Shown: positions 39,695-62,887, numbered from the stretch's first letter. The stretch: 64,000 nt of DNA from Flectonema sp. DT1601 (GCA_964019425.1 OZ025795.1:992001-1056000), one strand, 5' to 3'. Program-made: numbers and translations. Notes: generated from the sequence alone by a model not told the origin.

Positions 39695-39699
39695 TAACT

Positions 39700-40707
39700 C
39701 AACCCACTCTCACAGCCCACTCCCTTTAAATCTATCCACACCCCCCTCTGTCTTTAACGTAGAAACGGAACAGGAAAAACGTGAACTCTTGGAAAAAGAG
39801 AATCAACAACTGATCGCTGAATGTGATTTAGTGAATAGTTCTCTTCTCTCATTAGTTCAAAGAACTAACTCTCTGGAGGAAAAAAGGACGATCGAGCTGG
39901 CGCGACAAACACAAAGAGCGGACCATGCTGAAATGTTTTATTACAACTTACAACAAAGGTTCATTCTATTAAACAATGAATTAGAATCTAAGTGTAGGGA
40001 TGAAACTGGAACAAAAATTCAGCTCTATTTGTCTCAACAAGAGGTCGCAACATTGCGTGCTGGCCCCCAACTGTCTCATTTTTCCCAACAATTTTCCCCA
40101 ACACCCCCTTTTTTATTCGAATCAACGTCCACGGTAAAGAATTACCGACTCCCTCTCATCGCAACAACCCATTGCTCCTGGACTCCCAAACCCCGTCTTT
40201 CCTCTTTTTTTACCCCTCATTCTCCATTGATCACGTTCCCTTCTGAACTGTCTCAAAGTAGACTACTGGTATCGTCTTCTGCTCAAACGGAACAAGAAAA
40301 AGACAGTGCGGCGACCTCATCGATGGAAGAATCACCTATTGCGAGGCAAACCCGCGAGGCAATGGTCCGAAGGTAGACTCGATTTACTGGACAACTATTA
40401 TCAAGCGGTAAGTGACTCTCTCCAGACAAATGAGAAAGTGGCGCTGCTCTCGGAAAAACCATTGGAAGAGCAACGTCGATACTCCGAGTTGAGCTATCAA
40501 CAGAAGACTGTTCATAAAGAACAGCTGGATCAATCCATGTTGTTGACGGAGATGGCCAGTGAGCTCTCTGAGCAACTCTATTTGGCCAAAGACCAAAACA
40601 GAGCTCTCAAGTTTCAGTTACAAACTTGGGCAAATGGTTTTAACCCGCCTGAAAAGGAAGCGCAAGAAGAGAATGAGACCCCTACGCGTCCAAGGGAAAT
40701 GGTTTGA
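39700..40707 (+). pseudogene. Orphan coiled-coil coding relic (two overlapping frames)
   Basis: Track ORFs 39636-40376 and 40306-40707 are E/Q/L heptad-rich. There is no clear ATG start, and the strand is opposite to the host genes. Confidence 0.35.
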
Positions 40708-42115: not shown

Positions 42116-42907
42116 TTTTTTCTTTTTTTATTGTTGGTCCTAGTCAAGACCTTAAACTGACTAACCGGTCTTAATTTTAACTAAGTGAATGAACCCTTCC
42201 CGTTTTCCTTTTCCTTTTCCTTTTCCCTTTATTACTCTCTATCTGGTCTGTTATGTCATAAATCTCATTTAATTTTATCATTCATTTTAATTTTCACTGT
42301 TTCCCATCTACATTTTATTTTCAAATAGTTCCGGTCTGTCTTTAATTTTAAATAAGTATTAAACTAGTCCAACTGATCATGTTAACTCAATTTTTTTTTA
42401 TGTGCAAGAGATACCAACTCACAAGAGATACCAACACACATACGAGATACCAGCACTCCAGAGATACCGACACGCTAGAGATACCAAGTCACTTGAGATA
42501 CCTCCTTGTAAATTAATTCCCGGTATTTAAAATTTGAATTGGTAGTGTCAACTCTGCTTGCTGCTCTTGTTTATGTGTTGTCTCCTGAAAGTGATCTTAA
42601 CTTTAATAAATAAAAAGAATAAAAAAAAAAAAAAAAGAACAAACAATGTTATCATCGTTTTTTTTTTTATCGATCGACTATGTCGATTACTTTCTATTTT
42701 CCGTCCTGGTCAAGACGCTAAACTGATTGTTTTTTTTTTCAAAATTAATAAAAAAGAATATAAAAAAAAAAATAAAAAAAGAATAAACAATGTTATCATT
42801 GTTTTTTTTTTATCGTTCGACTTTGTCGACTAATTTCTATTTTCCATTTTTTTTCTTTAAAAATAAATAAAAAGAATTTAAAATAAAAAAAACGCATTGT
42901 TATCTTC

Positions 42908-43612
42908 TTGGAAGAGTTGATAATAAAAGCCAACAAAAGAAAAGAAAACCTCCCGCCTCCCTCTCAAACTTTTTTAAAAACAGGGGAAAATAAACCCCTA
43001 GAAAGAATTTCTAAAGAGACAGGCGAACTTTCACTAGCGAATGATTGGGTCATCCTCGACGATGTCGGTGATAACCGCCTAATTGTTCCTCTTGAAGTGT
43101 GCCATGTCTCGTCCTCTCTAAGACCAGACATTTTTATTTATTCTTTTTTTGCGAAAAGAGCACTGATTCTGGAGCTGACGTGTCCAAATGAAGATCGTTT
43201 CGAAACCTCTCATGTCTTAAAGGAAAAGAAATACCTAAAGCTAAGAGACTCGATCATCGCTAATGGCTTCGACTGTAACATTTTTACTATTGAAGTTGGC
43301 GTACGAGGAAACATCTGCATGGACCAGCTGAACATCTGGACACGTCACATCGGTTCACCTTTAGCACCAACAAAAGCTTTATTTTGTGAATGCACCAGAA
43401 TCGCCAGACAGTGCTCATATGTTCTGTTCCAGACGAGGAACCTCCCCACGTGGCATTCAAGACCACTTATGCGCAGCATTAAAGAAGAACCTGCCACTGC
43501 AAGTTTTATAAAAGATGGTAAAGAAATCTTCCCTGTGGAAGAAGTCAGAATTTCGATAAAGTGGGAAGTAACGGACTGGGAGCTTTTGGCTCCTGCCCTA
43601 TTCCCGATGTAA
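42908..43612 (+). mobile_element. 5'-truncated HERO-like non-LTR retrotransposon, restriction-like endonuclease region only
   Basis: ANDW..LDD....L.VP......LRPDIFIYS..KRALILELTCPNE.......KEKKY..L.......F......IEVGVRG is a PD-(D/E)xK RLE with HERO-like context. Confidence 0.85.
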
Positions 43613-44577: not shown

Positions 44578-45312
44578 CGGGAAGATAAAATGGAAACTAC
44601 TTTCTTTGTCCTTTCTCATTTTACAACAAATTTGTAAAATCTTTCTACTGACTCTGATCGTTGTCTCGTCATACAGCGACAGGGAAAACCCGCGAGCTGG
44701 GGACGACAGTCTTCTTTAGCATTTAAGCATTTTTCGACTTGAAAAGACATGACCCTTCAATTTAATGAGTTCTCATGTTTCTGGGTTTGGGATGGGGAAT
44801 GTGCACTTCTTCTCTTGATCCTTTGTTCTCATGGACCCCTTGTCTCTGTGCACAAAAGATAATTCGTCGTCTACCCAGCTTTACATTTGTCGCTGTACCA
44901 GTAAATAAAATGGGGCGAAAGAAGGGGGTGTGAGTCGTCCGTCCTTTGATCTCTGGGGCGTACGGACGTCAAGTTTTTTCGCTTGAAGGTTTTTCATCCT
45001 TTTCTTGGGTTGGGGGGCGGCCTTTGATTTTTATAATATGTGTGCGGCCTTTGGCTCCACTGGTCGGTGTTTCCTGGGGGGGGTGAAAAGCATGTTTTGG
45101 TCCGAGTTTGCCTCGTTGACCGGGGTTTTTTTTTTTTTTTTGGGGGGGGGTCTGGTTGCAGGTTGTGTCTCCTGCTTCGCGGGGGCTTTGGTCACGTTTC
45201 TAACCTCGCTCCCGCTCTTGTTCTCCCTCGTCCTCTACCATGTGTTTTGGGTTGGCTCTGGGGTCTTGGCTCTGTCTTTTCCTCGACTCTTGAGACCTCC
45301 TTCGTGGAGTCC

Positions 45313-48300
45313 CTAGCGCCTTCCCCCTTTCGACGAGAAGTCCAGGACCCTTCGCGTTGGATCCCCTTCTCTCTCCCTCATCTCTCCTTGGGTGCTTTTC
45401 TCACTCTGTGACGACGACCTTGTGACCAACTCTACTCCTGCCACACCTTGTCCGTCTCGCTCCGCCGGCTCCGGGCGTACGCCCGCGTCCGTGAACGAGG
45501 TCAGGGAGCCCGGGGGCCCGTGTGCGTACCCCATTGTGTCGGGTGTGTCTCCCTTACCTACCCGACGCAGTGTGGGTTTCCTGTTGTAACTCCGCGGCGC
45601 CTGTTCCCTCGTGGTGCCCTCCACTGGCTCCGGTTCCTTCTGCTTGCGTCTCTTCCTCTTCGCTTTCCTGCTCGGGTCTGGGGAGAGAACCTCTATCCTC
45701 TCCCTCTCTTCTCCCTTCCTGTACCTCCTCCTCGCCTGCCGTTCACCTGAGCTCGGGGTGGACTCTCCCATTTCCGCCTGCAACACCTGCGGACTTGGGT
45801 CCTCCTTTCCGGCCCCCTTTGCCCCCGTCTTTGCCTTCCGGCCTCTCGTGCGTCCCCTTCCCGTATTTGTCTTCGGCGACACACACTCCTCCCTCTCCTC
45901 CTCCATTCCCTTTCTGTACTTCGTCCTCCCTCTCGTGCTCGGTGTCGACACCGTGCCCGGCGATCTCTCTGCGTCTTCCCCGCTCCCGTCACTACCCACT
46001 GCGCGTGGTCCCATCTTCGCCCCCAAACTGGATCTCTCGGCCATTGGTTTTGTTTCGCCTGAGTTCACCAGCTTTGAAAGGGGCTCCGATTGGCCCTCCC
46101 GTCGTGTTTCCGCGTTCCCCCCTTCTGGGTGTAGTCCCAGCATCCAGGCCATCTGACCTGCGTTCCCCTCGGGCGCCGCTCCCTCTTCCCATTCCTGTTC
46201 ATCGACCGTCATGGTCATTTGGGAGTCTGACGATCCCTCCTCCTCTGTGTCTGACTCTGCCACCTGGACCACGTCCTCTGACGTCTCCTCGACGTACTGG
46301 ACTACTGACCCTTCCGTCACATTTTCTCCGTCGACTTCCATCTCCGACTGTGAGTCTTCCAGGTCCTCCAACCCCTCCACTCCGTCCATGCCGTCTGACG
46401 ACGGTGGCTCTCCTGAGTGGTGGGACGTCTCGTCCAGCTCGTCCCCCTTCTCGGCTTGCAGGTCCTCGGCCAGGTGATGGTTTTCGCCTGAGGTCTCTGC
46501 TGCCGACGGGTCTACTGACTGGTCCCTTTCGTCCGTCTGTTCTTCTGCTTCCATGTCCGACGTCCCTGGACTCCCCAAGGAGCCTCCCGACATGGAACCG
46601 TTCCCTTCGTCCTGCCCTGTCGCTGGGGAGGATGATCTATCGTCATCTCCCTCCGACCCTTCCGAGCTCAACTCCAGGACTCCCGCCTCTACCCTTTGCA
46701 CGGCCCCCTTCGGGGTTGGGACCGGGCTCTGCTCGTCTCGGCCCTCTACCCTCGCGTCTTCTCCTTCCACCGACTCTCGGCCGCCTGACGATCCCGTCCC
46801 CTCTTCTGTGTACTGGGGTTCCAGACGCAGTTGTCTTCCCTCCCACCGCACCGTGAAGGGACCCGTCTGTGTCCCGTGTCCCAGGCAGTTCTTTGCCCCC
46901 TCTGTGAAAACCTTCATCACGGCTTCCGTCACTGAGGTCGAGCCCTCCTTCGCCGCTTTTTCAGCCTCCTCCGTCGCGTGTGTTCTCATCCTCTCTGGCA
47001 TCTCCACCAGCGTCGTACGCCTCCCCATCAACTCCGCCTCCTCCAGCACCTCTCTTTGGTCCGTCGACCAGTGTGTCGTGCTTCCTCGCAGCAGCAGGGA
47101 TGCCTCCGCTGGGACGAGGCCTCCACACGCCTTGGCCGCTACCAGCCCCACCAGGGCTGCGAAGTATCGCCCCCAGTGTGTGTCTCCCGCTGGCAGGCCA
47201 GCTGACCATGTGCCCAACACCTCGAAACGGTGTGTGTCCAACCAGCTCGCCGCCGCCCCCAGACGGCCCGTTACCGGGTCTTCCTCGCATGCGTACACCA
47301 AGGTGTACCTCGTCCCTACTTCGCCAACCACCTCCCCCAGCAGGTGGGTTCGGAGGTATCCCTCCGCCTCCCCCTTGCTTGCGAAACTCTTGTGTCTCGC
47401 CGCCGCGTAGCCTGACACCATCGAGTTCGCCTCGTTCCAGCATTGGAACAGGCCTACCGCCCTGCCCCTCGCCACTGCGTACCACTTACGTGGGCTGACT
47501 CCCTCCGTGGCCCGGGTCGGTTCCCTGGTCTCCGGCTGCCACCTCTCTACAAACCTGTCCGCCTCCTTCCTGGAGGAGAAACTCTGGTGTGTCGCATTCG
47601 GGCACCCTTCCGTCTGTGCCTTCGCCTCCTCCCACGATGCATACACTCCCGGTTTCCATCCCACCGCCACCGCATACAGCTTCTCCTCCTTCGACGGGGG
47701 GTCGGGGGATGGGGGCTCTTTTTCCTCGGGTTGTCCCACTTCCTGTGCTGGCTCGTCTCTCAGCCCTACTGCTTCCGCTCCTTGTGCTTCCGTCGTCTGC
47801 GCTTCCACCTGGGCTGGCGCTTCGGCTCGTGGTCTGTCTTCGCCTGATGCCGTCGACCCTCCTGGGAGCGACTGGGATTCATCCGGTTCCGCCGCCTTTC
47901 CCCTCAATTGGGACAGCCCCAGATTCATCTCCAGCTCGATCACCAAGTAGTCGAGCCCGTCCTCCGAGAGTTCCACCGGCTCGTCCCATGCCGCCGATTC
48001 CGCTTCCCAGAGGGCCAGGTTCTCCACCCCTCGTGAGCTTTCCGTCACCTGGTGTTCTATCACCGACGGGAGCGCTACCAACTTCAGCGCCTCCTGCTGC
48101 TCGGCTCCCCACCCCTGCTGCGGTGTGACCACCTCGATCTGTGTCTCACCCCCCAGCAGTTGCGATCTCTCCCTGATCGCGTTGAGCCCTAGCAGCGCTG
48201 CCACGTACTCCGCAGTCGCTTCGTCCCATGTCGGTAGGCAGCCCGACCACGTGAACCTCCTGTCGAGCGTTCCCATGTGTATCAGGCATGCTGCCGCCCC

Positions 48301-49935
48301 CAGCTTCTCCATCTCCGCGTTCCAGACGCTCGATACCAGTAAGAGCAGCTTGCGCTGCGTCTGCCCCCCTACTACTCGCGTCCGGAGGACACACTCCGCC
48401 TCTTCCCTGGACGTGTACCCCGCGGTGTCCTCCTCCGACGGCGGTGCCTCGCGTACCTCCATCCGGTCCTTGTTCGCCACCGGAATCCATCTCACCGGCC
48501 CCCCGACGTCCTCTTGGGTCGATCCCTCCACCCTCGAGTAGACCACTACTACTGGTTTCGTCCCGTGGATCTCCTCTGTCGACACTTGGCTTATTGCCTT
48601 GTCGTCTTGCTTCTGCCAGCCTACTCCGTCCCACGTGTATGACACGTAATGCCCCGCGTTGTCACTCCCGAGGTGTGCGATCGCTCCCGTTTGCTGGTAC
48701 GTCATCACCCTCTCCCCGACCTGCACCTGGAAGCGCTCTTCCCATCCCAAGGACCCTTGCGTGTCCTGCTTGTCTCTCTGGAAGATCAAGGAGCTTGGGA
48801 GCGAGGCGAAACTCTCTTCCAGCGTGGCCTCATTGCTGCCGCACAGCTTCTCGCAGGACCGCTCGACTCTCTCCTTCGTCGGCTGAAGCCTCACTTGTGG
48901 TGTACGGCCACACAGTGGGATCAGCGTCAACTCATCCGTCGATCCGGAGGCGTCCGCACATCCCGTGCAGACCAGCTGTTTCAGCTGTACTGCCGAGAAC
49001 AACGGTTCGCACACCTCTTTCTTCTCCTCCAACAGGGCGTCTACTATGGACGTCAGGGTTCCTACTACCTCCCCCTGCCGCCTGTCTTGTAGCGGGTCGA
49101 ACATCTCGGACAGCTTCTCCAGGCACTCCCCACTCCCTTTGACCACTCCACTCAGGAGGCCCGACATCCCCACTTCCTCCTTCCCCGTCAGCACTTGTGT
49201 CAGTGCCGTGCCCTTCAGCAGGCACTGTACGGACGCGTTGAGGTAGCAGGAGTTCCCGATGTTCGGCAAACCTCTCATCGTCGGGGGCGGTCCTGCCGAC
49301 TGTCGCATTACTTCCGGCTGCTGGATCTCTTCCGTTTCCGCTCTCGGTCTTGGTTCTCTCTCTTGTGATGTCGGCTTCTCCGTCATCTCGGGCGGCGGTT
49401 TCGTCCTTGGCAATGGGTTCACTGAGTCCATCGCCACCGACGCCTCCCTCGCTCTCAGTGCTTCCGCCGTCGCCACTACCACCGATGTCGAGATCCTCCT
49501 CGCCATCTCCCCCGCGATCTCCCGGTGTGGCACCGTCGAGTTCGTTGCGCAGATCTGCACCAACTTCTTCAGGGTCCCCACTGCTTCCCGTCCCATCCCT
49601 CCGTACGCTTCCAGCGCAATTGTCGAGAAATTAATCCCGTGTTTCGTGCACTGCTCCGCGTACTTGTTCCCTTTCAGGGACTCTGCTTCTCTCGCGGCTT
49701 GCCCCGGGGTTTTATACAATTTAATTTTCCCCGGGTTTACCACTGTGATGTCGAAGGCTCTGCCTCTCCCCTCCCTCAGCCCCTCTTGGCAGTACCAGTC
49801 CCCCGGTCTCTGCTTGTTGGGTCCCAGTAGGTGGCTGGGTTCTCTCAGCAGCGGCAATCCCGCCTGCTTAAAGATGGAGATGAACTCCTCCTTCACCCTC
49901 TCGTGTCGCTGGTGCACGTGGCCGTTTTTGATACA
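45313..49935 (-). CDS. Retrotransposon polyprotein, C-terminal part: end of CCHC knuckle, RLE, USP/C19 peptidase, RNase H-like, two RNase H1 hybrid-binding domains, RNase H-like, acidic and basic tails
   Basis: RLE: RHERV...RPGD...AFDITVVNP...K..KY...LEAYGG. USP: GLPNIGNSCYLNASVQCL and HLGSDNAGHYVSY..W.KQDD. HBDs: KLYAVAVGWKPGVYASWEEA and KWYAVARGRAVGLFQCWNEA. Confidence 0.9.
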   Translation of the reverse strand, partial: CIKNGHVHQRHERVKEEFISIFKQAGLPLLREPSHLLGPNKQRPGDWYCQEGLREGRGRAFDITVVNPGKIKLYKTPGQAAREAESLKGNKYAEQCTKHGINFSTIALEAYGGMGREAVGTLKKLVQICATNSTVPHREIAGEMARRISTSVVVATAEALRAREASVAMDSVNPLPRTKPPPEMTEKPTSQEREPRPRAETEEIQQPEVMRQSAGPPPTMRGLPNIGNSCYLNASVQCLLKGTALTQVLTGKEEVGMSGLLSGVVKGSGECLEKLSEMFDPLQDRRQGEVVGTLTSIVDALLEEKKEVCEPLFSAVQLKQLVCTGCADASGSTDELTLIPLCGRTPQVRLQPTKERVERSCEKLCGSNEATLEESFASLPSSLIFQRDKQDTQGSLGWEERFQVQVGERVMTYQQTGAIAHLGSDNAGHYVSYTWDGVGWQKQDDKAISQVSTEEIHGTKPVVVVYSRVEGSTQEDVGGPVRWIPVANKDRMEVREAPPSEEDTAGYTSREEAECVLRTRVVGGQTQRKLLLLVSSVWNAEMEKLGAAACLIHMGTLDRRFTWSGCLPTWDEATAEYVAALLGLNAIRERSQLLGGETQIEVVTPQQGWGAEQQEALKLVALPSVIEHQVTESSRGVENLALWEAESAAWDEPVELSEDGLDYLVIELEMNLGLSQLRGKAAEPDESQSLPGGSTASGEDRPRAEAPAQVEAQTTEAQGAEAVGLRDEPAQEVGQPEEKEPPSPDPPSKEEKLYAVAVGWKPGVYASWEEAKAQTEGCPNATHQSFSSRKEADRFVERWQPETREPTRATEGVSPRKWYAVARGRAVGLFQCWNEANSMVSGYAAARHKSFASKGEAEGYLRTHLLGEVVGEVGTRYTLVYACEEDPVTGRLGAAASWLDTHRFEVLGTWSAGLPAGDTHWGRYFAALVGLVAAKACGGLVPAEASLLLRGSTTHWSTDQREVLEEAELMGRRTTLVEMPERMRTHATEEAEKAAKEGSTSVTEAVMKVFTEGAKNCLGHGTQTGPFTVRWEGRQLRLEPQYTEEGTGSSGGRESVEGEDARVEGRDEQSPVPTPKGAVQRVEAGVLELSSEGSEGDDDRSSSPATGQDEGNGSMSGGSLGSPGTSDMEAEEQTDERDQSVDPSAAETSGENHHLAEDLQAEKGDELDETSHHSGEPPSSDGMDGVEGLEDLEDSQSEMEVDGENVTEGSVVQYVEETSEDVVQVAESDTEEEGSSDSQMTMTVDEQEWEEGAAPEGNAGQMAWMLGLHPEGGNAETRREGQSEPLSKLVNSGETKPMAERSSLGAKMGPRAVGSDGSGEDAERSPGTVSTPSTRGRTKYRKGMEEEREECVSPKTNTGRGRTRGRKAKTGAKGAGKEDPSPQVLQAEMGESTPSSGERQARRRYRKGEERERIEVLSPDPSRKAKRKRRKQKEPEPVEGTTREQAPRSYNRKPTLRRVGKGDTPDTMGYAHGPPGSLTSFTDAGVRPEPAERDGQGVAGVELVTRSSSQSEKSTQGEMREREGDPTRRVLDFSSKGGRR

Positions 49936-49942
49936 GATTGAG

Positions 49943-52900
49943 CATACTTGTGCAAAAAGCTAAAAGCTAAAGCTAAGCTTTTTGGAGCTAAAGCTAAGCT
50001 ATCTAGCTTTTTTTAGCTTTTTTTTTGAAAAAAATTTTTTTTTAAATTTTGGCATGTTTCTGTACTTTTTTGATATTTTTTTTGGTTTTGTGAGGAAAAA
50101 AAGTGTGGAAAAAAAAAAAAATCACCAATTATAATATTTCCAGTATCCACCACTACAGGTTTTTGTGTGTTTTTTGGCTCATTTAAGCTGTTAAGTGACG
50201 TGATTTTTCGATATTTGCGCAACCTGGTATCTACAAAGATAACATTTCATAATTCAACTATGTGTACTGTTGGGAGAGAAATATGTTTTTTTTTTTATAT
50301 GACAGGCAAATTATTACTTATTACAATCAACACTGAGTATGATTTTTCGCTATACTTGCCTTAACACACATTTTCCCTACCTGGATTAAAAAAATGTCAC
50401 TAAAAGGAGGAGATATCCATAAATTCACTAAATAATTATACCACAGAAGTAGTAAAATACAGGAAACAGGCGTTGTTTCCCCTTGCGTTTCAGCAGGAGA
50501 TCTTCAAGTCTCACTGCCCGAACCCAGCAGTCGTACACTGTGTTCCATCGGGTACTGCCTATGCATTTAAGTTGCAGAGGGCTTCCCTTTCGACCCTTCT
50601 GCACCTCAAGGAACAACTCCTTCCTTTTGGGGGTTGCCATCTCCTCTGTCAGATCCTTCACCTTATTGTATGCCGTTGAGAGGAGGGGGATACCATTGAT
50701 GAGATCCTTCATTAACAGCTGCAATGAATGTGCTGCACATCTGATAGTGAGGAGCTTCTCCTTCCCTGCAGCCTGAAGCATCTGCTCTAGAGCATCTGCG
50801 TCAATGCCCTCTGGGTCTTCTTCTCCTGCACTTTCACAAGATGCTGCACTGTCATTGTCAGTGTCTTCTTCAAGACTCTCCATCTCTGTGATGGTTTATT
50901 AAATCTTAGTTTGTAAAATGTTGGGCAGCAGGTAATGTTTGCTTTTTTAGATACATACTAACTGGAAGTGCTGCTTCCTTCAGGGCATTCTGCATGCTCT
51001 TTGCATTGTCAGCACAGAAGGCAAGTGGAACAACATTAGCTTCAAGTAGCTCAGTAGTGATGCTTCGAAGTACCTTCAAGGCATCTGCAGCAGAAAAGCT
51101 AGTAACTACTACACTTCTAAAAAACAGGGCCATATGGCCATTGTGAATACTGAAGTTCAGCACTCGTCGCTTTCCAGGTAGTGTCGCCCCATCAAACATA
51201 ATTGTAACATCATCGCCTTCAAACCGCTTAAGCAACTTCTGACGGCAGGTATTCCCAAGCTTCTCAATGTGGGCAAGCAGACTCCTTCGCGTAACACCTG
51301 CAGGTGCAGACGTAATGCCAGTGAAAGTTGGATCTTCAACCACTTGCAGGGCTATCTTATTTTGGCAGAAGAACACAGCTATTTTGTCCATCATGCTCTG
51401 TTGGTGTGAGACATTGTACAAACACTTGATGTTTCTAAAGAAATTCAATGGTTTACATACCAAGTCTTTTAAAACACACAGATCAGTGGTGGAAGTGCCA
51501 TGTGTTACCCCCAACTCCTTAGGCTTCCCGCTTCCTGGGAGGTTGTGATGACAACGCAAGTGTGCCCGCAGGTTACTTGTTCCAGCGTTTTTCTTCCCTG
51601 AGCCTCCATTCTTCATCCTAATCTCACCGCAAATGTTGCACTTGCCCCTATCCCCATTATCAACAAACCAACCACCCTCACCAAAGAGTGGTCGGTCAGC
51701 CTGTGTTGTCCCAACCTCCAATCCCCCCTCCTTAGCTTCCTGTGGAATTGGCGCAGCTGGTATCTTGGGAAGTACTTCAGGCATGCTCTCTTTCGGCTTA
51801 CTATCAAGGATATTGCGAATCCTCTCCTCCTTTGCATTCCACACCTCAGTTGCATCTCTGCACTTCTGTTCTGCATCATCTACCTCTGCTTTTAGTCGCT
51901 TCACTTCATTTTCCATCTCCCCATGTTCGGATTCAAGTAACCGCTTCTCGTTCTCAATCTCTAGAACCCTTGTTTCTAACTCTGTAACTTTCTCTGAGCT
52001 GCCTGTCTGCAACACATTTGCTAGAGTTGCGTGTGTAATTTGTGCTACCTGCAGTTGAATCCCTTCCGCTAGGGAAGAATGTTGTTTCTTTAGGGCACTG
52101 CACTCATCTTGCAAGCTAAGTAATTCCTTCTCAGCAGCAGTGTTTGACTCCTGCAGTTTCTGCGTTACTGCTTCATGCTCTTCCTGCAGCAGCAACTGCT
52201 CTTCATGCATTGCATCCTGGAATGCCTGGAACTCAGAGTCCCTGTAGCTTTGTTGGGCTACAAGATGGTGTTCTTGCAACTTTTCCACTGCAGTTATACC
52301 ATCGTCAGTAGAAATGTTACTGAATGATGACTGCTCCTTTTGCCAGTTTCCAACTAAGTTTTCTACATCCCCACTACCTCTGGGCAGCAAGAAGGAAAGC
52401 AGTTTAGTACTTCTGGGTGTTTGGCATCACCCCCCATAGTGAGCAAGTACAACAGGTAGCATTGGTAGTCTGTTGATCCTGAGTGATCCCAGCTACAGTT
52501 TTGTTTTTCTTTCTTTTTTTTAGAAGAAAATCAGGACATCCAAGCACTGCTGGATAGTTGCTGAATGCAGGGCCTGCCTGTGGCATTATAATAACAGGCT
52601 AAGTCATTTGTAGTTCATAGTTTACCTTTGATTTTATAACTTCACATAGGTACTATGAACGATGAGAGATCCAGTGGGATCACTCAGGGTCTAGTAGAGA
52701 CCACCAATGTTGTGCGTTGATAGGCAAGGTGACCAACCTTGACATTCTTTCTTTTCTCTCCTGTTGTGACAAACACAAAATACACACACAGCTTACAGTG
52801 TGTTCTTTGTGTATGTTTTCTTCAGGTGTGAGTAGTTTTTTTGTTCTTGCTCTTCAGGGAGGGCCTTAGCCAAAAGCTAACAGTCCAAATCTCACCTGGA

Positions 52901-53814
52901 AATTCAACTCAGTTTCTTAGCTGAGTGACTAAGATGTCGAAAGTGAGAGAGATTCCCCCTGTACACTGTGACTGAATGATAGGGATTTGATGCCAAATCA
53001 GCATCAGAGGGTGGAAATCGAAGGATAGTGGCAGGATCTTGGCGATACATGATACCAACATGCCTGTTATCACCTGATCCTCGGGCTACTTGCACATAGC
53101 CTCTCCATTCCACTATCTTCTTCGCTGCCTCTTTCTTGAATCGCAGAACGATTCGATCATCGACTTGCAAGTCACATGCAAGTTGCTGCAGCTCAGCAGC
53201 CTCAAGTGGAGTTTCAAGAGCATTCATTGTAGGAGATGGATCTGAAAGGAGAAAAAAAACACATTGCAACAGGTTAAGTTACTGTAGTTTGACAGGGAAC
53301 TTTGTAAGACATTTTTTAAGAACCTGGGGGGGGGTAAATTAAGGAGGGGAAATTTGGATTTATGCAGTTTTGACACCTCTTACCTTATATCCTTGCTCTG
53401 TTCACAGATTTAGCTGCTAATATACCAAAAGACCCCAAAAAAACCCAAACAAGACTGGTTACTAGCTTTTTTAATTAAAAAAAATTTTTTTTACTCCCCT
53501 TCAAGTAATTTTTTTTTTTTTTTTTTACATTCTGAGAGAATAATTTTTTTTTCAAAAAATTCAAAAAAAAATGCTTTCAGTGCCTACAGTGCCAGTTTCT
53601 CAATTTTCCACTGCTTTATTTTCAACAACTTTCCATTTTTTTTCTAAAAAAATTCCAAAAAAATACCAAAAATGTCCAAAAATGAGGTATTTTTTGTTTG
53701 AAAATTTTTTTTCAAAAAAGCTAAAAAAAAGCTAAAAAAAGCTAAAAAAAGCTAAATAGCTTTAGCTTAGCTCTAAAAAGCTTAGCTTTAGCTTTAGCTT
53801 TTTGCACAAGTATG
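49943..53814 (-). mobile_element. hAT DNA transposon, 3872 bp, TIRs starting CATACTTGTGCAAAAAGCTAAA, 7-bp TSD GATTGAG
   Basis: Inverted termini of about 60 bp with AGCTA subrepeats. GATTGAG occurs at 49936-49942 and 53815-53821. Confidence 0.95.
50428..53227 (-). pseudogene. Intron-containing hAT transposase (coiled coil, BED finger, D..D, CxxH, RW); C-terminal E and dimerisation region not seen
   Basis: CNIC...GTSNLRAHLRCHH (BED), IMFDG, CADNA, CAAHSLQL and STRWN. The 5' exon structure is unresolved. Confidence 0.8.
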
Positions 53815-56800
53815 GATTGAGGCATGGTATCCCTGCCTATCCTGTGGGCCTGAGCATATCCTGCATACTGCCCCTTCCGCGAACAGCGCTGCGCCCAATC
53901 GCATCCCACATGCGATCCTGAACGTCTCTGGGTCCATCGCGCACTCTTCATCTGCTTGTTGCAGCCATGCGCTCGCCTTATCCATGCGCAGGGAGAGCAG
54001 CCTCCCTTTATCGCGCGGGTCATTCGCCCCCGCCAGCAGGCAGTCTCTCTTGACCTGGTCCAGTTTCGCCGAGGACAGCCTCTGGGGGTTCGGCCCCGGC
54101 CCGTCTTCTTCTATCCTTAGCTCCTCCGGGAGGGCGAGGTTCAACCCCTTCTTCAGTGCTGGCATCAGCATCCCCTTGAACCCCTCCCACAGTGACTTGC
54201 TCACCCCTTGGACTAATTCCAGGGATCCCAATAGTGCTGCTCCCCTGTGCTCTGCACATGACCGCAGCCCCAATCCCCCCATCCGGGTCGGCAGTTGTGC
54301 TTGCATCCACTTTGGCCCCTCCAGTGTCAGGCCCAACACTCGGCTCGCCGTGGACCTCATCAGCTCGTCCACCTTCCGCATCGAGGTGTCCATTTTCCCA
54401 TGCGTGCAGCATCGCATCAGGTGGGTCACCTTGCAGAAGCCCATGCATTGCCTTAGGAGCACCATGGCCACCTGCCGGTCCTGCAGGTCTGCTAGCAGCT
54501 CCGCTTTCTTCTCCAGCTGCGCCACCTTCCTGTCGACGAACTCCTGGCAGTGTTCCTCCGTCCCGAACGGTGCCCCCAGGAAGTCCCCGTTGTACAGTGG
54601 GGGTCTCATCCCTTCCAACCCCCACCCCAAGGGCAGGGTGTTCTGGGCTGAGTCGAGCACGTGCGTCTGGCACTTGTCCGGCCTCAGCGTCAGCCCCAGC
54701 TCCGCCGTCTCCTTCTGCAGGATTTGGAGGGCCTTGTCTACCTGTTCCAGGGTGCCCGCCACCAGCCCATCGTCCAGGTAGAAGCACGCCAACTCCGGCT
54801 TCGCCTCCAACACCTTCTGCAGCGCCGGCTTGATTGCCAACGAGAACAGCAAGGGACCCAACGGATCCCCCTGCTGAGCGCCCTCCTCCGAGCTCAGCCT
54901 CTCGTCCCCAAACAGCAACCACGTCGGCGCTCCGTAACACCAGCTGACCCAGCTCTCCAGCAGGGTATCCCTCGTCGAATCCAGGAACGCCCCCCTCTTC
55001 ACGCAGTTGAAGGCGTTCGAGAAGTCTATCTTCACGAACACTTTCTGTGACGAGAGCGCGTGCTCCGCGCGGAACTCATGCAGGGTGTGCACCGCCGCCT
55101 CCACTCCCCCCGACACCGCTACTCCTAGCTGTCTCACTTCTAGCAACGAGCTCCTCGCCTGGGACCTGTATGCCCCGCACAGGATCTTCGCCACCAGCCG
55201 CCTCCATGTTTCCCCCACCGCGACTGGCCGGTGCTCCCCCGGCTTCCCTTCTTTCTCCAGCGCCGTCAGGTTCGCCCCCGCCAGCAGCGGCGCTACTTCC
55301 CGCGGCGCCCTCCCGTTCGCCAGAATCCTCACCACCTCCGTGATCGAGGCTACCAGCCCCGGCACCTCACCCCGCTCCACCACGTCCTTCAGGTGTTGCG
55401 GCGCGAGGCCCGAAGGCCCTCCACTCGACCCCCTGTGGAAGGAGCGTAGGCATGCTAGCAGCTCCACCTCTGCTATCTGCACCTCCTGCCCTGCCGTGGC
55501 CGATGGGGGTCCGCTCGCCCTCGGGTGTAGGGTGCGCATCTGCTCCAGCACCTTCTCGGTTCGTTCTGCTGGCGGCGGCGCGTCTAGGGCCGAGATCGCC
55601 TGTGACAGGCAACCCTCCCTCGCTAGCGACGTGGCCCTGTCGTTCCTTCCTTTTTGCCCCGCCTCTTTCACTGCTGGCCTTCCCGTCGCCTTGCGGGGGG
55701 CCGCCGCTTTCCACAGTCCCTCAAATTCCCCCCGAATCCATGCTTGCAGGTCGTCGACCGCCCCTGTCAGATCGCTGGTCGACAACCTCCTACCCCCCCT
55801 CCGTATCCTCCGCAGTGTACATGTCGGGAGCATCAAGAGCAGCTTCCATGCCCACTCATCGTTCCGCTCCACGACTAGGTCGAGCGACAGCTTGAGTGCT
55901 CGCCCCAGATGATGCAACAGGGACACCGGCAGCTTCTTCGCTATCGGCCTCCTCCTGCTGGCTATTTCCTCCAAAGAGGGGAAGCTCTGGCTCTCCAGCA
56001 CCCGCTTCCGGAACGCCGTGTACACGTCCCCCAGTTGGACCTTCTGCAGTTTCTCACTGCACCCCGGATGCATCGGCTGGTCCTGCCCGATGATCCCACA
56101 GCACACCGGACATTCCCGGAGGCCTAGCCTCGCCAACTGTCCATGCGTCAGCGGGTTGCCACTGAATGCGTGCTCGTCCACGTGTCTTAGGAGCTCCGCC
56201 CACTCCTCGAAGCCTCCCTTGTGTTTCGGGCACTCCGCTTGGGGGCACTCGTGCAGCTGGGCCTGTCGGGAGGCTGTCTGCAGCACTGCCGGCTCGCCTC
56301 CTGCTGCTTGCGACAGCGGGCCTGGCGACACTAGCTCCAACCTCCGGGCGCTCTGTAGCAGCCGCGCGACGCAGTCCTCGGATGCCTCCACTGGGTCGTA
56401 GTGACACCCGTTCTGCAGGGTCAAGACCAGCGTCTGCTTCGGGTCCGATGGCCCTTCCACCACCAGCGTTTCCGTCCTCACCACGACGACGAAGCGGCAC
56501 TGTAGGTCCTCTGCCATGACCTGTAGGGCCAACGCATCGCCCCAGCATCCATCCTCTTCTAACGCCCTCGCATATACTCCGAATGCGTCCGCGTCCTGGA
56601 AGAAGACCTCGAACCTTTCCCTGTTCTTGGTCAGGTACCCTGCCGTTCTCCTGCGGAGCTCTCCATGTCTGCCCTTCCACCCCTCTGGCGTCTCTAGGAG
56701 TTGGCACACACTCCTGAACAGGCAATTCCCATCCCCAATCACCCGAAATACTTTTGCTCCCTCGCACTTCAGGCTTGCCAGTTCCGGCGCGGGTCCCGTC

Positions 56801-57714
56801 GCTACCCCCAGCCGTCCCTTGAGGTCCAACATCTCCCGACACCTCACTGTCTGGTGCACCAATCCGGTACTCAGCTCCCCGCAGGCCTTGCAGATCTGCT
56901 TTCCGAGTCTGTCGGAAGCCATCTGGGCCGTTACCTCCCCCGGTACCACTCCCTTCAGGTGTTGTTTGAAGTGGTACTCTAGGTCACCCCTCACCCAGAC
57001 GCTGCACCCCACCACCGGGCACTTCGTCCTCTCCTTGCTTTGCCCTCCTCCTGCCAGGTCTGACGGCCTCGCATACCATGGTCTGGGCTCCGCCTTGTGC
57101 CCTCCTGGCTTTGTCCAGTCCCTTTCGGGCCCTGCCCGTCGCTTCTTCGGTGTCTCCGCCTTGTTCTTCCTTGGCCTCTCTGTCTCCGCGCGGAATCTCT
57201 CTCGCCTGGCGTGGAACTTCTCCAACTCTCCCGCCCACCGCTCCCACCTCTCCTGCCGTTCCTTCAGCAGCTTCCTCCTCCTCCTTTCCAGCCGCCTTGC
57301 CGCCTTGGACGCCACTTTCGGGGACGCCCTCTTCAGGAGCTCCCTTCCTCCCTTGTCTGGAGGTGGCTTTGGGTGGTCTCGCCTCACCCGGTTCCCGGCC
57401 GTTTCCGTTCCCCTCCGCGGGACCCACACCCCCTCCCGTCCATGTTGGAAAGCGCGTCCGCTTGCCGTATTGTTGGGGCTGTTTGAGCTGTTGGGGGTTA
57501 CAAATGGGTGCGGGGGGATCGGGCGTGTTACGCGTCGGCTGATGCGCGATGAAAACAGTGGGCCTTTGTCCAGCGTTGTGAATAGAGGGGTGTGCCATCC
57601 GCCTGGCACTGGGGCTAACCTCTGCTTACCCACTCCGGACGTCTGTTGCGCCCTCGTTCCACTTAGTAGTGCCCACAGCAGCACGTACCCACACAGTAAC
57701 ATTGTTTTCTCCAT
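53815..57714 (-). CDS. Retrotransposon polyprotein, N-terminal part: hydrophobic leader, Zn fingers, OTU protease, Zn fingers, reverse transcriptase, start of CCHC knuckle
   Basis: Zn fingers CPVVGC..HFKQH and CPQAEC..HVDEH. OTU: IGDGNCLFRS..WGD..HYD. RT: RPVAVGE.WRRL, KIDFSNAFN, GAQQGDPLGPLLF, FYLDDG and QLP.RMGGLGL. Confidence 0.93.
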
Positions 57715-57717
57715 TCT

Positions 57718-57754
<37 letters not shown>

Positions 57755-57865
57755 ACTCTTCCTTTTCCGTTCCCTTCGCTGTGGATGATTTGTGTATGGA
57801 ACCCGAAAAAAGACAATCGACTTACCTGCTCTTCTCCTTGTTAGCCCTGTACGTGTGTGTGGAGT

Positions 57866-57907
<42 letters not shown>

Positions 57908-58076
57908 CCGGCTCGCGTATCCTCCGCTTTCCGAACTCTTCTGTCTATGCGGTCACCCCCGTACAGTTCCGACGCAGAATGGTAGTCACCACCACAGGCA
58001 CCAAACAAAGCTAGTGAGAGAGTTCTTCCTTCTCCTCTCCCGCAGGCTGATTCGTAAAGTTTTGTCTTAAAAGAGA

Positions 58077-58370
58077 GTTTTAACAAGAACAAAAAAAGGA
58101 TATGCTCTGTTTGCAGGTCTTAAAAGCAAAGTTTAAACGAGAACAAGAAAAGATATGTTCTTCTCGCGCGCTGACTAGCGGAAGACCGTGTATCAAAGCA
58201 GAGTTTAAACAAGAACAAAAAAAAAAGGATTTGTTCTTTTCGCTGTCTTAAGCGGTGTTTAAACGAGAACAAGAAAAGATATGTTCTGTTCGTGCGATGT
58301 TTTGCGGAAGACCGTGTCTCAGTGTAGTCTTAACGAAGAACAAAAGAAAATATTTGTTCTGTTTGCGCGT
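58077..58370. repeat. Five imperfect 55-70-bp tandem units, most with an AGAACA...TGTTCT hairpin
   Basis: Units start near 58077, 58132, 58203, 58257 and 58327 (GTTTAAAC.AGAACAA.AAAAGATATGTTCT). Confidence 0.8.
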
Positions 58371-58607
58371 TCACCAGCGGTCCAGTCTCCAGAAAAGATG
58401 AGAAGGACGTATGAGCTGGAGGAATAATTAACTTTTGACAAAAGCAAAGTACTCTCGAAGACAACTCGAATCAGAATGCAGGTGGGGAAAATTTCAACTC
58501 CCTCTTCAGCAGAGCAAGGTTTCCACAGCAACAACAATTATCCGCGCCTTCAATGTCCGTTTGTGACTGCTGGCCGACTCAAAGCGTTCGTAGACCGAAG
58601 ATAGATG

Positions 58608-58657
<50 letters not shown>

Positions 58658-58740
58658 CCTACCCCGCCGATGTACTAGAGCTTACTGAAGGGCCCGCGTT
58701 TATCTCCTCCTCTGCAAGTATGCCTATGCAAAATCTAATT

Positions 58741-58777
<37 letters not shown>

Positions 58778-59020
58778 CCTCTTTCTTCCTTAGTATTTTC
58801 TAAATAAACAACGACAAGTAATACCAAATTCTTCTAAATAAATATGACCTAATTAATATATATAATAAACAATAAAATAAAATTTTTTTTTCAACAATAT
58901 ACTTTGGCGCAGTGGTTTTTGTCACCGTCTGTCTTCTGGTCCACCTGGGTTCAATACCCTGTGGGGGTCGGGGGGCGACGGGGGCGACTTCTGCGACTTA
59001 AAAGACTTTAAAGCGCTAAG

Positions 59021-59669
59021 CGCTTCGCTACACGAACACGAGTGTGTCACGTGGCTGCCGCCGATTTCTTCTTTTGTTGGGGTGGGGGAGGGTGGATGGG
59101 GTGAGCGTGGGGAAGGGTGGTCGGGTTGTGGGATCCGCTTGCGTGGAAAAATTCCTAGCTGCGCTTTCCTACTCGCTGACGGGGATGGGGCGAGGGAGGG
59201 AAAAAACTGTGAAGAAGATGTTTTAATTTAACAATAACAAAAATGTACTCTAATGTAGACAGATAAATGTAACAAAATAACAGATAGTAACAGAATATAC
59301 AGACAGATAAACAGACAGATAAACAAACAAATAAATAAGCAAATAAACAACAATCTAAGAGAGGAATGAAATTAAGAGGAAGTAATTAACAAAAGTAAAC
59401 AAATAAATAAGGAAGAAGAAGGTCAGTCACATACACCGTCTCTTCTACGTCGTCGTCGTCGTCGTCTTCGAAGTCGCCGAAACGCTTCGCTACACGAACA
59501 CGAGTGTGTCACGTGGCTGCCGCCGATTTCTTCTTTTGTTGGGGTGGGGGAGGGTGGATGGGGTGAGCGTGGGGAAGGGTGGTCGGGTTGTGGGATCCGC
59601 TTGCGTGGAAAAATTCCTAGCTGCGCTTTCCTACTCGCTGACGGGGATGGGGCGAGGGAGGGAAAAAAC
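59021..59669. repeat. 187-bp direct repeat (59021-59207 / 59483-59669), G-tract-rich on +
   Basis: Identical blocks at an offset of 462 bp. Confidence 0.97.
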
Positions 59670-59707
59670 AATAAAGTACAGAAACTGTAGCTTTAGAATC
59701 GTTGGTT
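59669..59707 (-). ncRNA. Spliced-leader (mini-exon) 39-nt exon without SL intron; retro-copied SL rather than a functional SL RNA gene
   Basis: The minus strand reads AACCAACGATTCTAAAGCTACAGTTTCTGTACTTTATTG. It has the euglenozoan 39-nt length, the conserved CAGTTTCTGTACTTTATTG 3' half and the diplonemid-type AACCAACGAT start. No GT donor follows. Confidence 0.93.
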
Positions 59708-59912
59708 TTTTGAGGGATAGAGAGGCAGGTAAGTGGGAGAGCAAACCCTCGGAACCAGCGATCCTTATGATGTATGAATGCGTGCTAAAAATATAAACCA
59801 CATCAACAGTCTTAAGCTGGTTTTACAGGTCCCACGATTACCCGTCGCCATGGCGAAGAAAAGATAAGTAAATTATAACTCATGATGGCTCACAAGGTCA
59901 CGTTTTGTTTTG

Positions 59913-59945
<33 letters not shown>

Positions 59946-60092
59946 CCCCATTTCTTTTTAACCCCTGAGTAGTATAGTAAGCTCGTTCGCAGTGTTCCCT
60001 GGGCACGCATTGGTTCTTTTCTTTTGCTCACCCTTTTTTTTTTTTTTTTTTTTTTTTTTTCCCTTTCACTTTTTTTCACATGTTCCTTCTTC

Positions 60093-60431
60093 CTAGTCGT
60101 CGTCTTCTTCGTTACCTGAGCATGACCGTGTTAGGCTCCCTGTTCCTACTCTCCTCTTGTTTCCAAACACTTGCTTCCGCAGCCTACCTCTATTACTCCG
60201 CCGTCTCACCAGCTCTCTCGCAAAGTTCCCTAATGTCTTCGAACCCGACGACGACGCGTCTGTACTACTCAGATACAGAAGGTCCCGGTCAGCTCCAGCC
60301 GGTCCCTTCCGCGCCTTGTCATGGGCTCTCCTTCTCTTCGTCTTCGTCTTTTTCGCCTCCTTGGCGAGTTTGGCTTTCAGCGCGGCCAGATCACAGCATT
60401 GGTCGAAGTCGCATTTGCTACAGTTTACCAT
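60093..60431 (-). CDS. Possible small basic protein with an N-terminal Cys cluster
   Basis: 112-aa ATG ORF (CSKC..CC, K/R-rich). No recognised homology. Confidence 0.3.
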   Translation of the reverse strand: MVNCSKCDFDQCCDLAALKAKLAKEAKKTKTKRRRAHDKARKGPAGADRDLLYLSSTDASSSGSKTLGNFARELVRRRSNRGRLRKQVFGNKRRVGTGSLTRSCSGNEEDDD

Positions 60432-60678
60432 TTTCTTATTTATTATTTAAAAAAAGGAAACAATCAGTTTAGCGTCTCGATCAGGACGGAAAATAGAAAG
60501 TAATCGACATAGTTGATCGATAGAAAAAAAACAATGATAACATTGTTTATTCTTTTTTTTTTTTTTGGGAAAACCTACAGATCCACCCCCAGGTTTGGAG
60601 AAACGTACACTACGGTCACGGCCTTGTGTAGCATTTTCGACCCCAGAAGATTAAATAAAAAAAAACTTTTTTTGCATG

Positions 60679-60757
60679 TCACCACTGGTTTAGTGGTAGA
60701 TCTTTGGACTTGCATTCGCCAGGCTGCAGGTTCGAATCCGTGTCGGTCGTTTTTTTT
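60679..60757 (+). promoter_or_regulatory. tRNA-like Pol III unit (A box, B box, T-run) inside the left MULE end
   Basis: TGGTTTAGTGG ... GGTTCGAATCC ... TTTTTTTT. No paired acceptor stem. Confidence 0.65.
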
Positions 60758-60989: not shown

Positions 60990-62792
60990 TTATCTGATGG
61001 AATCGGGATTGCTTGAAGATGATGATGTCGACATGTCACGCTTCTTCCTCTTCCCTACAATGCGGGAAGCTCCTTCCGAAGGACCGTAGCGACAACTACG
61101 GCTGTTGTGCCCATGCCTTCTACACTTGCCACATTTATTCGGTATTGTCTCACCTGCACTGCGGATGCGAGTCTTCTTCGGCCTGCCTACACCCTTCCTC
61201 ACTTCAGGTGGTAGTGTTCCATCAGATGTGGTGTCATGCGCGGGTTCAGGCTTCAGTGTGAGTTGATAGAGGCTGTCATAGGAAGTTGTCCACAGGTATG
61301 CTGGGCACACACGGCTGTCTGTCAATGTGTTTATATCCAGGTGCGCTGCAACTCTCAGAATATGCATGCAAGGCAGGTTGTAGCGCCTGTAACTTGGACA
61401 GCTACATGTAAAGGGATGCCCTTCCTTCACAACAGAACCTGTTTGGGGTTGGTTTGGCTTGCCAACTTCAAACTCACCGTCTTCGAGGCTTGTGACTTGA
61501 TACGTGAAAGCCACAGTTTCCTCACGTATCTTTTGCTCGATCGGTGGGATCGGTCTGTTGGTTGAGGTTTGTTCGGAGAATGCACCTCGCCTCTCCGCGA
61601 GCTTGTCGGTCAACCACCTTCGAGTCTGCTGGATCAGAGTTAAAACTGACCCCTCGCGTGCCGGCTTCAGCAAAGAGTTTATGCTTTCCACGGCGTTGCT
61701 GGTGTAGGTATCACACCTCGCAACATCATCTGGCCAGTAAGCATCTGCCCATCGCTTCATATCGGTGTTCTTGAGGTACCGATGGGCCTTCTTCCCGTGT
61801 TGCTGCTTAACATCCTTCAGCACCTCCACCACCTTCGTGCTGTCCGCCTTCGCCAGTTCCCACACTGTTTTTGTGGCTTCTTGCTTCGTCAGGCTAGTCT
61901 CCACAGCAACATTCTTAACCAGGTGGTTAATACAAATAGCGTGGTGGCGAATGGTGTCGTCCAACGACGTGTCGGACTCCAGTCCCTTCTGCCTGTCGGA
62001 GAACAGTGTAAATCGGGATAGTCGATTTCCATACACAGCCAGTATTTTTCTGTTGTGGAGTGTCCACGACTGCAAGTCCTCCGACGCGGATATTGTGAAC
62101 CCCAATGGCAGGAGCTTCCTGTTGGCGTCCAGACCCAGGGTCACTAGTAACACACCGCGAAATGACCCATAAAGGCCACATGCGTCAGAGAAGATTACCG
62201 GTAGCAGGTAATCAATTGCCACAGGTGGCAGAAACGCCCAGAAGCAGCTGGCGAAAACCAAATCCCTGCGTCGTTCAATGGAGAATGTCATCTCCGGATT
62301 TTTTTCTTTTAGGGCTTCGAAGTATGATTGGAGCTGCCCATACTCCGACCCTCGCTTTCCATACACCTTCTCCTTCGCTATCGTTAACCCCTTTTCCACG
62401 GTGCCTTTCTTCACCGGAATATCCCTGAAGCTCTTCAGGTCAACTGCAGCGGCTTTAGGCCCGTAGTCTGGAAAACTACGCACCTTTTCCTCCAGCACCG
62501 ATGCCACCCACTCTGCTACTCCATCCCCTTCTCTGTTGCACAAGCCAGGGGAACATGTGTGAGCTTTCACCTCCCTCACCTGGAGCTCACCTTCCTTGAC
62601 TACCGCCTTCACAACATACAAGCAGTCTTCTTCATTCTTGCATACCAGGGTGGTTCGGTTGCGATCACTCCTTTTCACCCTGAAGGTGTGGCCGTGCGTT
62701 GTTGACCACTCAAATACCCTGGCCTTCAGCGCTATGACGGTGGCAAACACTTCACCTTCCGACACCTGCAGTTGTGCAACGTTGTTGTTCAT
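60990..62792 (-). CDS. MuDR/MULE transposase (600 aa, apparently intact)
   Basis: N-terminal C..C..HTC, FSDACGL, FSDRQKGL, CINH, TSNAVESIN, SWIM (CSC......LPCMH) and a C-terminal CGKC...GHN...C knuckle. Confidence 0.95.
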   Translation of the reverse strand: MNNNVAQLQVSEGEVFATVIALKARVFEWSTTHGHTFRVKRSDRNRTTLVCKNEEDCLYVVKAVVKEGELQVREVKAHTCSPGLCNREGDGVAEWVASVLEEKVRSFPDYGPKAAAVDLKSFRDIPVKKGTVEKGLTIAKEKVYGKRGSEYGQLQSYFEALKEKNPEMTFSIERRRDLVFASCFWAFLPPVAIDYLLPVIFSDACGLYGSFRGVLLVTLGLDANRKLLPLGFTISASEDLQSWTLHNRKILAVYGNRLSRFTLFSDRQKGLESDTSLDDTIRHHAICINHLVKNVAVETSLTKQEATKTVWELAKADSTKVVEVLKDVKQQHGKKAHRYLKNTDMKRWADAYWPDDVARCDTYTSNAVESINSLLKPAREGSVLTLIQQTRRWLTDKLAERRGAFSEQTSTNRPIPPIEQKIREETVAFTYQVTSLEDGEFEVGKPNQPQTGSVVKEGHPFTCSCPSYRRYNLPCMHILRVAAHLDINTLTDSRVCPAYLWTTSYDSLYQLTLKPEPAHDTTSDGTLPPEVRKGVGRPKKTRIRSAGETIPNKCGKCRRHGHNSRSCRYGPSEGASRIVGKRKKRDMSTSSSSSNPDSIR

Positions 62793-62887
62793 TTGAAACT
62801 TAAGGATTAATAACTAACGGGGGGTTAAAAAAAAAAATGACGCAACCGGGACTCGAACCGACGCAGCTGGAAAAAAATTGAGCGGGG

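Follow-up and report, generated by a model that had tools for sequence, protein, structure and literature searches.

A giant retrotransposon of the non-LTR type, lacking long terminal repeats and about 11.25 kb in size, occupies the minus strand, from 59707 to about 44480, of the 64,000-nt stretch of the Flectonema sp. DT1601 genome analysed here (GCA_964019425.1 OZ025795.1:992001-1056000; hereafter the window, with positions counted from its first letter). Its single polyprotein carries two domains of deubiquitinase type, an OTU domain ahead of the reverse transcriptase (RT) and a USP/C19 domain behind the restriction-like endonuclease (RLE). This OTU-RT-RLE-USP element is one copy, split by a hAT-like transposon, of a young multi-copy family. 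It is probably a variant of the CRE-like RLE retrotransposons, with an established architecture and a proposed mechanism that is specific but unproven: both deubiquitinase-type domains appear catalytically intact from their sequences, and we consider it reasonably probable that the OTU cuts a leader from the polyprotein and that the USP strips host ubiquitin from the retrotransposition complex or the target site. The first-pass annotation of this DNA had delimited the element as 45313-57714, which holds for the open reading frame (ORF); the full element extends beyond it on both sides.

Rejoined reading frame and domain architecture

Two long minus-strand frames (57840-53794 and 49959-45313) lie on either side of a 3872-nt insert, and removal of the insert together with one copy of a 7-bp duplication joins 57714-53815 to 49935-45313 and yields the 2840 codons that the first-pass annotation had proposed. 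The open frame also survives many other join offsets, and the frame alone does not settle the exact join; the join is fixed because two uninterrupted database proteins read through the junction as predicted, namely P0161 (2840 aa, 9 substitutions relative to the rejoined frame) and P0169 (2836 aa, 15 differences). The cluster represented by P0038 has 35 members, of which the 15 listed provide the per-member counts: four span the junction, all with the predicted reading, and 13 reach the same C-terminus. The copies do not stop after the RLE: in each of the five listed members that include the end of the RLE, the protein continues into the USP. P0038 itself is without about 165 aa of the low-complexity tail, in frame. 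The existence of uninterrupted, near-identical copies therefore indicates that the family is real, young, and multi-copy.

The polyprotein is arranged as leader, zinc finger, OTU, zinc fingers, RT, CCHC-RLE, USP, and a pair of hybrid-binding domains with RNase H-like repeats, and the element shares its strand with the window's long host frames. The features of the coding and 3' regions are as follows.

57046-57714, minus: leader, aa 1-223, with a hydrophobic N-terminus, an Arg/Lys-rich tract, and a diglycine motif at its end
57046-57066, minus: P-x-x-L-x-G-G motif, aa 217-223, predicted cleavage site
56839-57021, minus: N-terminal zinc-finger pair, aa 232-292 (pattern match)
56380-56763, minus: OTU domain with D328/C331/H438 (Pfam aa 327-414, E 9e-13; OTUD3, E 8e-10)
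56059-56247, minus: second zinc-finger pair, aa 490-552 (pattern match)
54658-55254, minus: RT core, YLDD at 54780 (Pfam RVT_1, E 2.5e-17)
53815-53865, minus: first part of a CCHC knuckle, interrupted by the insert
49943-53814, minus: hAT-like DNA transposon, 3872 nt, broken transposase (inverted ends and 7-bp duplication)
49459-49935, minus: end of the knuckle and RLE with D1346/D1362/K1388 (conserved in six families)
48538-49275, minus: USP/C19 domain with C1530/H1729/D1744 and a four-Cys finger (Pfam UCH/USP aa 1521-1766, E 8e-12)
48001-48357, minus: probable inactive RNase H-like repeat 1 (ESM Atlas and weak profile match)
47356-47682, minus: pair of hybrid-binding domains of RNase H1 N-terminal type (Cauli_VI; two Pfam stretches, E 8e-28)
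46936-47325, minus: RNase H-like repeat 2, probably inactive (identity with repeat 1, 25-29%; no direct database match)
45313-46935, minus: tail, acidic and then basic low complexity, plus stop codon
44482-45312, minus: 3' untranslated region (UTR) with the A-run 44577-44482, which is probably a poly(A) tail

Pfam searches on the intact copies recover the OTU, the RT, the USP, and the two RNase H1 N-terminal domains. The RT domain (Pfam aa 821-1019) is that of a non-LTR element with an intact YxDD motif. The CCHC knuckle followed by a PD..D..K endonuclease is conserved across six families and has no Pfam model match; we take Asp1346, Asp1362, and Lys1388 to be the catalytic residues of the RLE. 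A module resembling the N-terminal zinc-finger pair is also found in P0004 and P0185.

The insert has inverted ends of 83 nt (49943-50024 and 53734-53814, 94% identity) and is flanked by the 7-bp direct repeat (49936-49942 and 53815-53821), 8 bp being the usual hAT target duplication. Its transposase has two matches that fall short of the Pfam cut-offs, to DUF659 (E 6e-6) and to zf-BED (E 0.004). Of the earlier description as a hAT with a target-site duplication, the insert and the duplication stand, and the hAT label is assigned partly from motifs presumed to be characteristic. The insert also encodes an extra coiled-coil region ahead of the BED finger, and its segment 52376-52908 (537 nt) is 97% identical to 39170-39703 of the window.

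Two deubiquitinase-type domains

The OTU before the RT and the USP after the RLE were both found where the first-pass annotation had placed them. In the OTU, the D-x-x-C motif and the His are present, and the Cys and His are retained across families. For the USP, a model built from a five-row alignment reached a pLDDT of 79 (38 in the single-sequence prediction), and its best Foldseek matches in the PDB were all USPs, with USP46 at the top (E 8e-17; TM 0.74). The Cys, Gln, His, Trp, and Asp residues and the finger cysteines are conserved, although identity between the window USP and the others is just 20-26%. Profile match and model agree that this is a clear USP/C19 domain, with ubiquitin hydrolase activity as a prediction; the enzyme activities of the OTU, RT, and RLE are likewise deduced from their motifs. 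The A2 profile search included one cellular-type USP, and its E-values are not independent evidence.

Recurrence and lineage

An RT search among long proteins gave seven matches. P0004 (3746 aa; 36% RT identity) contains an OTU, an RT, and two copies each of a USP-like and a Cauli_VI domain, and P0004, P0015, and P0017 share the domain order of the window element at 36% RT identity, with members up to 4730 aa. These three proteins (3746-4730 aa) also have a long N-terminal array of ~29-aa repeats. Two fragments belong here as well, P0187 with an RLE followed by a USP Cys box, and P0194 with a USP His box, two Cauli_VI domains, and an RNase H-like repeat. The search for uninterrupted copies and for relatives in other diplonemids, as the first-pass annotation had suggested, yielded, besides P0161 and P0169, the Diplonema papillatum proteins KAJ9440845.1 and KAJ9439003.1 (OTU-RT-RLE-USP); together with KAJ9464156.1 (RT-RLE-USP) from the same species, they carry no annotation beyond that of SLACS proteins. 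Among named RTs, those of D. papillatum 'SLACS' proteins come nearest (38-40%).

In an RT tree of 125 of 126 sequences, these families fall into one clade of nine (support 0.965); in an IQ-TREE analysis of 50 rows (the nine and 41 hand-chosen sequences), the clade received 92/90, short of strong support. The root is only a distant match, and the sequences compared include no curated SLACS, CZAR, NeSL, or HERO reference. Tails after the RLE exceed 500 aa in eight of the nine clade members. In the sub-branch without a USP, a weak second OTU follows the RLE in three of four members (6.6-17.5 bits; maximum of 200 shuffles, -0.8).

That RLE elements normally end soon after the RLE is borne out by the controls: among 146 RLE proteins the median tail is 29 aa, and 102 stop within 100 aa. 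In the best 80 of 515 metagenome loci, 66 of the 67 RLE frames that are closed by a stop finish within 150 aa, and none of the 80 loci matches OTU, USP, or Cauli_VI. A word search for RLE plus USP in 3261 candidate proteins of 2696-5000 aa found none, and the RT search later found them. No relative was found in the viral contigs.

Diglycine motif at the end of the leader

The motif P-x-x-[LM]-x-G-G closes the leader in all six clade families whose record includes a leader (three records are without one), and each of the six leaders has one [LM]-x-G-G just before the first zinc finger or the OTU. The Pro seven residues before the predicted cut is present in all six and was not part of the search pattern. 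Outside the clade, the full motif occurs once in 113 proteins, and the short motif is found within 45 aa of the first finger in none of 27 N-termini. P0003 has three copies of the motif, and P0185 a single LxGG in 3379 aa. An Arg/Lys-rich tract is present in all six leaders. The start of the window leader (57643-57714, minus) is a signal-peptide-like hydrophobic stretch, and membrane-like segments are seen in the leaders of P0185, P0003, and P0005.

An N-terminal OTU is present in all six motif families, and a USP was detected in only three of them; the OTU is the likelier cutter because the motif is kept in the three families without a detected USP. The leader is thus likely cut at the diglycine motif by the element's own OTU, as the conservation pattern suggests. 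Comparable sites are cut by viral enzymes, namely RLIGG by the arterivirus OTU and LXGG by the coronavirus proteases of USP fold, and the OTU of turnip yellow mosaic virus (TYMV) acts on its own polymerase, according to the portions consulted of PMC5695851. Five non-clade CRE-like proteins (P0099, P0110, P0124, P0136, and P0148) contain a ubiquitin-like RLRGG in their N-terminal part, at which a host deubiquitinase may cut.

Tail behind the endonuclease

As measured with our own RLE profile, the tail comprises 1381 aa, close to the roughly 1370-aa extension with an intact USP described earlier, and contains in addition two Cauli_VI domains and RNase H-like modules that had gone unnoticed. The hybrid-binding domains are bracketed by two related 120-aa repeats. 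Repeat 1 scored 0.92 to RNase H clusters in the ESM Atlas, and neither repeat has a match in Pfam or the PDB. The catalytic aspartates are missing, and the helix Glu alone is retained, in repeat 1. These features suggest that the two repeats are probably dead RNase H folds.

Spliced-leader-like 5' end and the 3' flank

A 5' end resembling a spliced leader (SL), absent from the first-pass annotation, was found upstream of the ORF.

59669-59707, minus: 39-nt SL-like exon, putative 5' end of the element
59480-59668, minus: first copy of the 5' repeat X (~190 nt), fused to the SL-like exon and sharing 99.5% identity with the second copy
59207-59479, minus: U-rich spacer ending in CAG, putative trans-splice acceptor of the 462-nt unit
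57715-59206, minus: ATG-free 5' UTR, made up of the second copy of repeat X and a further 1.3 kb

The 190-nt repeat occurs twice, 462 nt apart; the inner copy is preceded by a U-rich tract and CAG, and the outer copy, at the same base, by the 39-nt exon. From the inner acceptor to the ATG at 57714 there is no ATG in 1492 nt (shuffle mean, 9.8; 0 of 500 shuffles as low), and the opposite strand of the same 1492 nt has 19. The 39-mer is single in the window, and a short contig of run X1 matches it end to end; another X1 contig has spacer sequence in place of the SL-like exon (joint 59482>59021). The 39-mer resembles a spliced leader in sequence and is a candidate SL exon. Because an SL-like exon is joined exactly at an AG acceptor and is followed by an ATG-free UTR, the window copy is likely derived from a trans-spliced RNA, as far as its sequence can tell. 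In Diplonema, the SL exon is 39 bp long and genes are polycistronic, as stated in the available portions of PMC10161547. The window element does not lie in an SL RNA gene, as judged from this one insertion: the only SL-like exon of the window continues into element sequence, with no GT donor.

The 39-mer was also found, at 37-39 of 39 identity and with unrelated flanks, in six of the eight viral-collection loci matched. Five of these copies (L081, L082, L084, L086, and L088) lie in one 238-kb contig, each ~25 nt after an AAAA(A/T)TGAA stretch, which we take to resemble the mimivirus early promoter; the 39-mer also occurs once in a giant-virus metagenome-assembled genome (GVMAG) contig. Possibly, a giant virus encodes the host spliced leader at its gene starts.

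At the 3' end, the element terminates in the A-run 44577-44482, though A-runs are common in this genome, and the 3' flank is a dispersed repeat, of which an adjacent copy carries a shorter, empty A-run. A 10-nt sequence situated 3 nt ahead of the SL-like exon is matched 13 nt beyond the A-run, which does not amount to a clean target-site duplication. An empty-site comparison had taken the block 44578-60435 as the whole element; the 5' end was shifted to 59707 on the strength of the SL-like junction and the distribution of ATGs. What is left up to the flanking repeat (59708-60435, minus) holds a 112-aa Cys-containing basic frame and may be the 3' end of a different element that went into the same A-run; it gave no tblastn match among the proteins retrieved for comparison.

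Proposed mechanism and alternative explanations

In the proposed mechanism, the element would be read through by host polycistronic transcription, and a spliced leader would be added at the AG acceptor in the 462-nt 5' unit; the window copy would have been reverse-transcribed from such an SL-bearing RNA, with the inner acceptor retained for the next round. The ATG-free UTR, evident in the sequence, leads to the one ORF. The OTU would then cleave after P-x-x-L-x-G-G and free the basic leader from the catalytic body. The RLE and RT would carry out target-primed reverse transcription, as in the family at large, here at an A-rich site, while the hybrid-binding and dead RNase H modules may tether the USP-bearing tail to the RNA:cDNA hybrid, opposing ubiquitin-driven degradation or repair. 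Of the two roles raised in the first-pass annotation, self-processing thus gains sequence support from the conserved diglycine motif, and the anti-ubiquitin role stays conjectural. More tentatively, the clade may represent an undescribed euglenozoan lineage of giant non-LTR elements (2,000-4,700 aa) that work like a positive-strand RNA virus polyprotein: an OTU of their own cuts a conserved diglycine site, behind the endonuclease sits an exchangeable second deubiquitinase (a USP, two USPs, or another OTU) that dead RNase H parts hold on the RNA:DNA hybrid, and repeated trans-splice acceptors preserve the 5' end without a promoter.

Several observations weigh against the proposed mechanism. The diglycine motif was spotted by eye, with the pattern and window picked afterwards, and the six families share descent, which makes this conservation and not six independent trials. 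The RNase H-like match is weak (hhalign probability 6%, E 0.006; reversed control, E 0.75). A uniform role sits uneasily with tails that vary widely within the clade: the D. papillatum USPs are divergent, have no Pfam Cauli_VI (hybrid-binding) domains, and are without the Asn five residues before the Cys, which serves the oxyanion in USPs; the first USP of P0004 is degenerate; and no USP was detected in four clade families. Support for the clade is moderate, several tree rows are of unusual composition, and the P0004 family is probably from the same host as the window family rather than from a second one. One clade member, P0082, has a 43-aa tail, though on a 2.5-kb contig.

Among the alternatives, a host deubiquitinase might cut the diglycine site, the OTU and USP acting only on host ubiquitin in chromatin silencing or DNA repair. 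Five of the 113 non-clade relatives do carry the N-terminal RLRGG, with no OTU detected, and Bao et al. propose, in the portions available, that OTU, Ulp1, and C19 domains of transposons modulate repair (PMC2836005). The clade motif, however, differs from the ubiquitin C-terminus in its variable P3 and in a Pro fixed seven residues before the cut, and its place is invariably just ahead of the element's own OTU module, which makes the host-enzyme explanation unlikely. We regard as improbable an exchange of roles in which the USP is the processing protease, like the USP-fold coronavirus PLpro, and the OTU the anti-ubiquitin enzyme: viral USP-fold proteases cut LXGG, and the window tail has extra LxGG sites at aa 1990 and 2415, but these have no Pro and are not shared, and the leader motif persists in the three families without a detected USP.

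It is very improbable that the tail is neutral cargo, acquired by 3' transduction and read-through and without a role in transposition. Its length and content do vary greatly, some USPs are degenerate, and P0038 tolerates its in-frame deletion; against this stand 1381 codons in frame, catalytic residues kept across families despite the low USP identity, a second OTU in the same slot in the sister branch, and a GC content at third codon positions of 0.76 in the USP, which fits the RT (0.80) and not host genes (0.30-0.34). A one-off fusion or assembly artefact at this locus is refuted by the uninterrupted copies and the independent D. papillatum records, even though no contig crosses the insert junction in two read runs, where contigs are shallow. 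OTU cleavage of the leader combined with a ubiquitin-directed USP is the preferred explanation.

Other features of the window

The element lies in a repeat nest (42605-63475) bounded by 294-nt inverted copies (42605-42892 and 63186-63475), which includes a plus-strand RLE-like fragment (42887-43612), a tandem duplication of 533 nt, and a MULE transposase (60993-62813) whose inverted ends measure 66 nt. At 60690-60750 (minus), a tRNA-like sequence was seen by eye; ARAGORN and Rfam gave no call. The host frame at 1-5790 (minus) is based on repeats of 591 nt, looks DOMON-like on inspection by eye, and encodes 1930 aa or more.

Relation to known systems and implications

The described CRE elements (SLACS, CZAR, and CRE1/2) insert in SL RNA genes and have a single ORF, zinc fingers, RT, RLE, poly(A), and internal repeats; apart from the insertion site, these are common to the window element, whose poly(A) is probable, including the single ORF with N-terminal zinc fingers typical of the clade (PMC12278014, in part). 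The window element differs in its 2840 aa, its OTU, USP, and hybrid-binding modules, its position at an A-run, and its SL-like exon start; the portions of that source consulted mention no protease domain in CRE elements. NeSL and Utopia-1_TSP (Ulp1) and the oomycete Utopia elements (RNase H) are of RLE type and carry a cysteine protease or an RNase H as accessory domain, but their Ulp1 is N-terminal, their RNase H is of active type and upstream of the RT, and their RLE is C-terminal, as described in the available part of PMC4640811. Among large retroelements, Dualen (Josephin-like protease) and the Penelope-like element Chlamys-1_cBra (C-terminal Josephin-like motif) carry a deubiquitinase-type domain, suggested to disrupt protein degradation; they differ in having one Josephin-type domain, another RT lineage, no USP, and no OTU pair (PMC8557442, in part). 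Ginger1, Helentron, and the Trichomonas vaginalis transposase XP_001314237.1 carry OTU, Ulp1, or, in Trichomonas, peptidase C19, but are DNA transposons with one protease each (PMC2836005 and PMC6431247, in part). Deubiquitinase-type domains on transposons, including C-terminal ones (Penelope-like element and Trichomonas transposase), thus have precedents in these sources. The viral enzymes equine arteritis virus (EAV) PLP2, TYMV PRO, and coronavirus PLpro, of OTU or USP fold, cut their own polyproteins, often at LxGG, and remove ubiquitin (PMC5695851); the analogy with the window element, which is not a virus, is functional only. In the open literature outside Repbase, judged mostly from titles and the starts of abstracts, a search returned no non-LTR element carrying a USP, none with two types of deubiquitinase, and none with a self-cleavage site.

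Relatives are plentiful in the model diplonemid D. papillatum, whose SLACS-labelled orthogroup has 745 members, counted irrespective of a USP (PMC10161547, in part). The RLE end of these proteins tolerates more than 1,000 extra residues, which is relevant to R2-type gene-insertion tools. Ubiquitin- and SUMO-type proteases are frequent on transposons, and their role has so far been guesswork; in this young, multi-copy family, where a site of cleavage is predicted and the two catalytic cysteines can be separated, self-processing and counter-defence become testable apart from each other. The SL-joined 5' end, finally, suggests how a retrotransposon may be expressed, and may retain its start, in a genome that has no gene-specific promoters.

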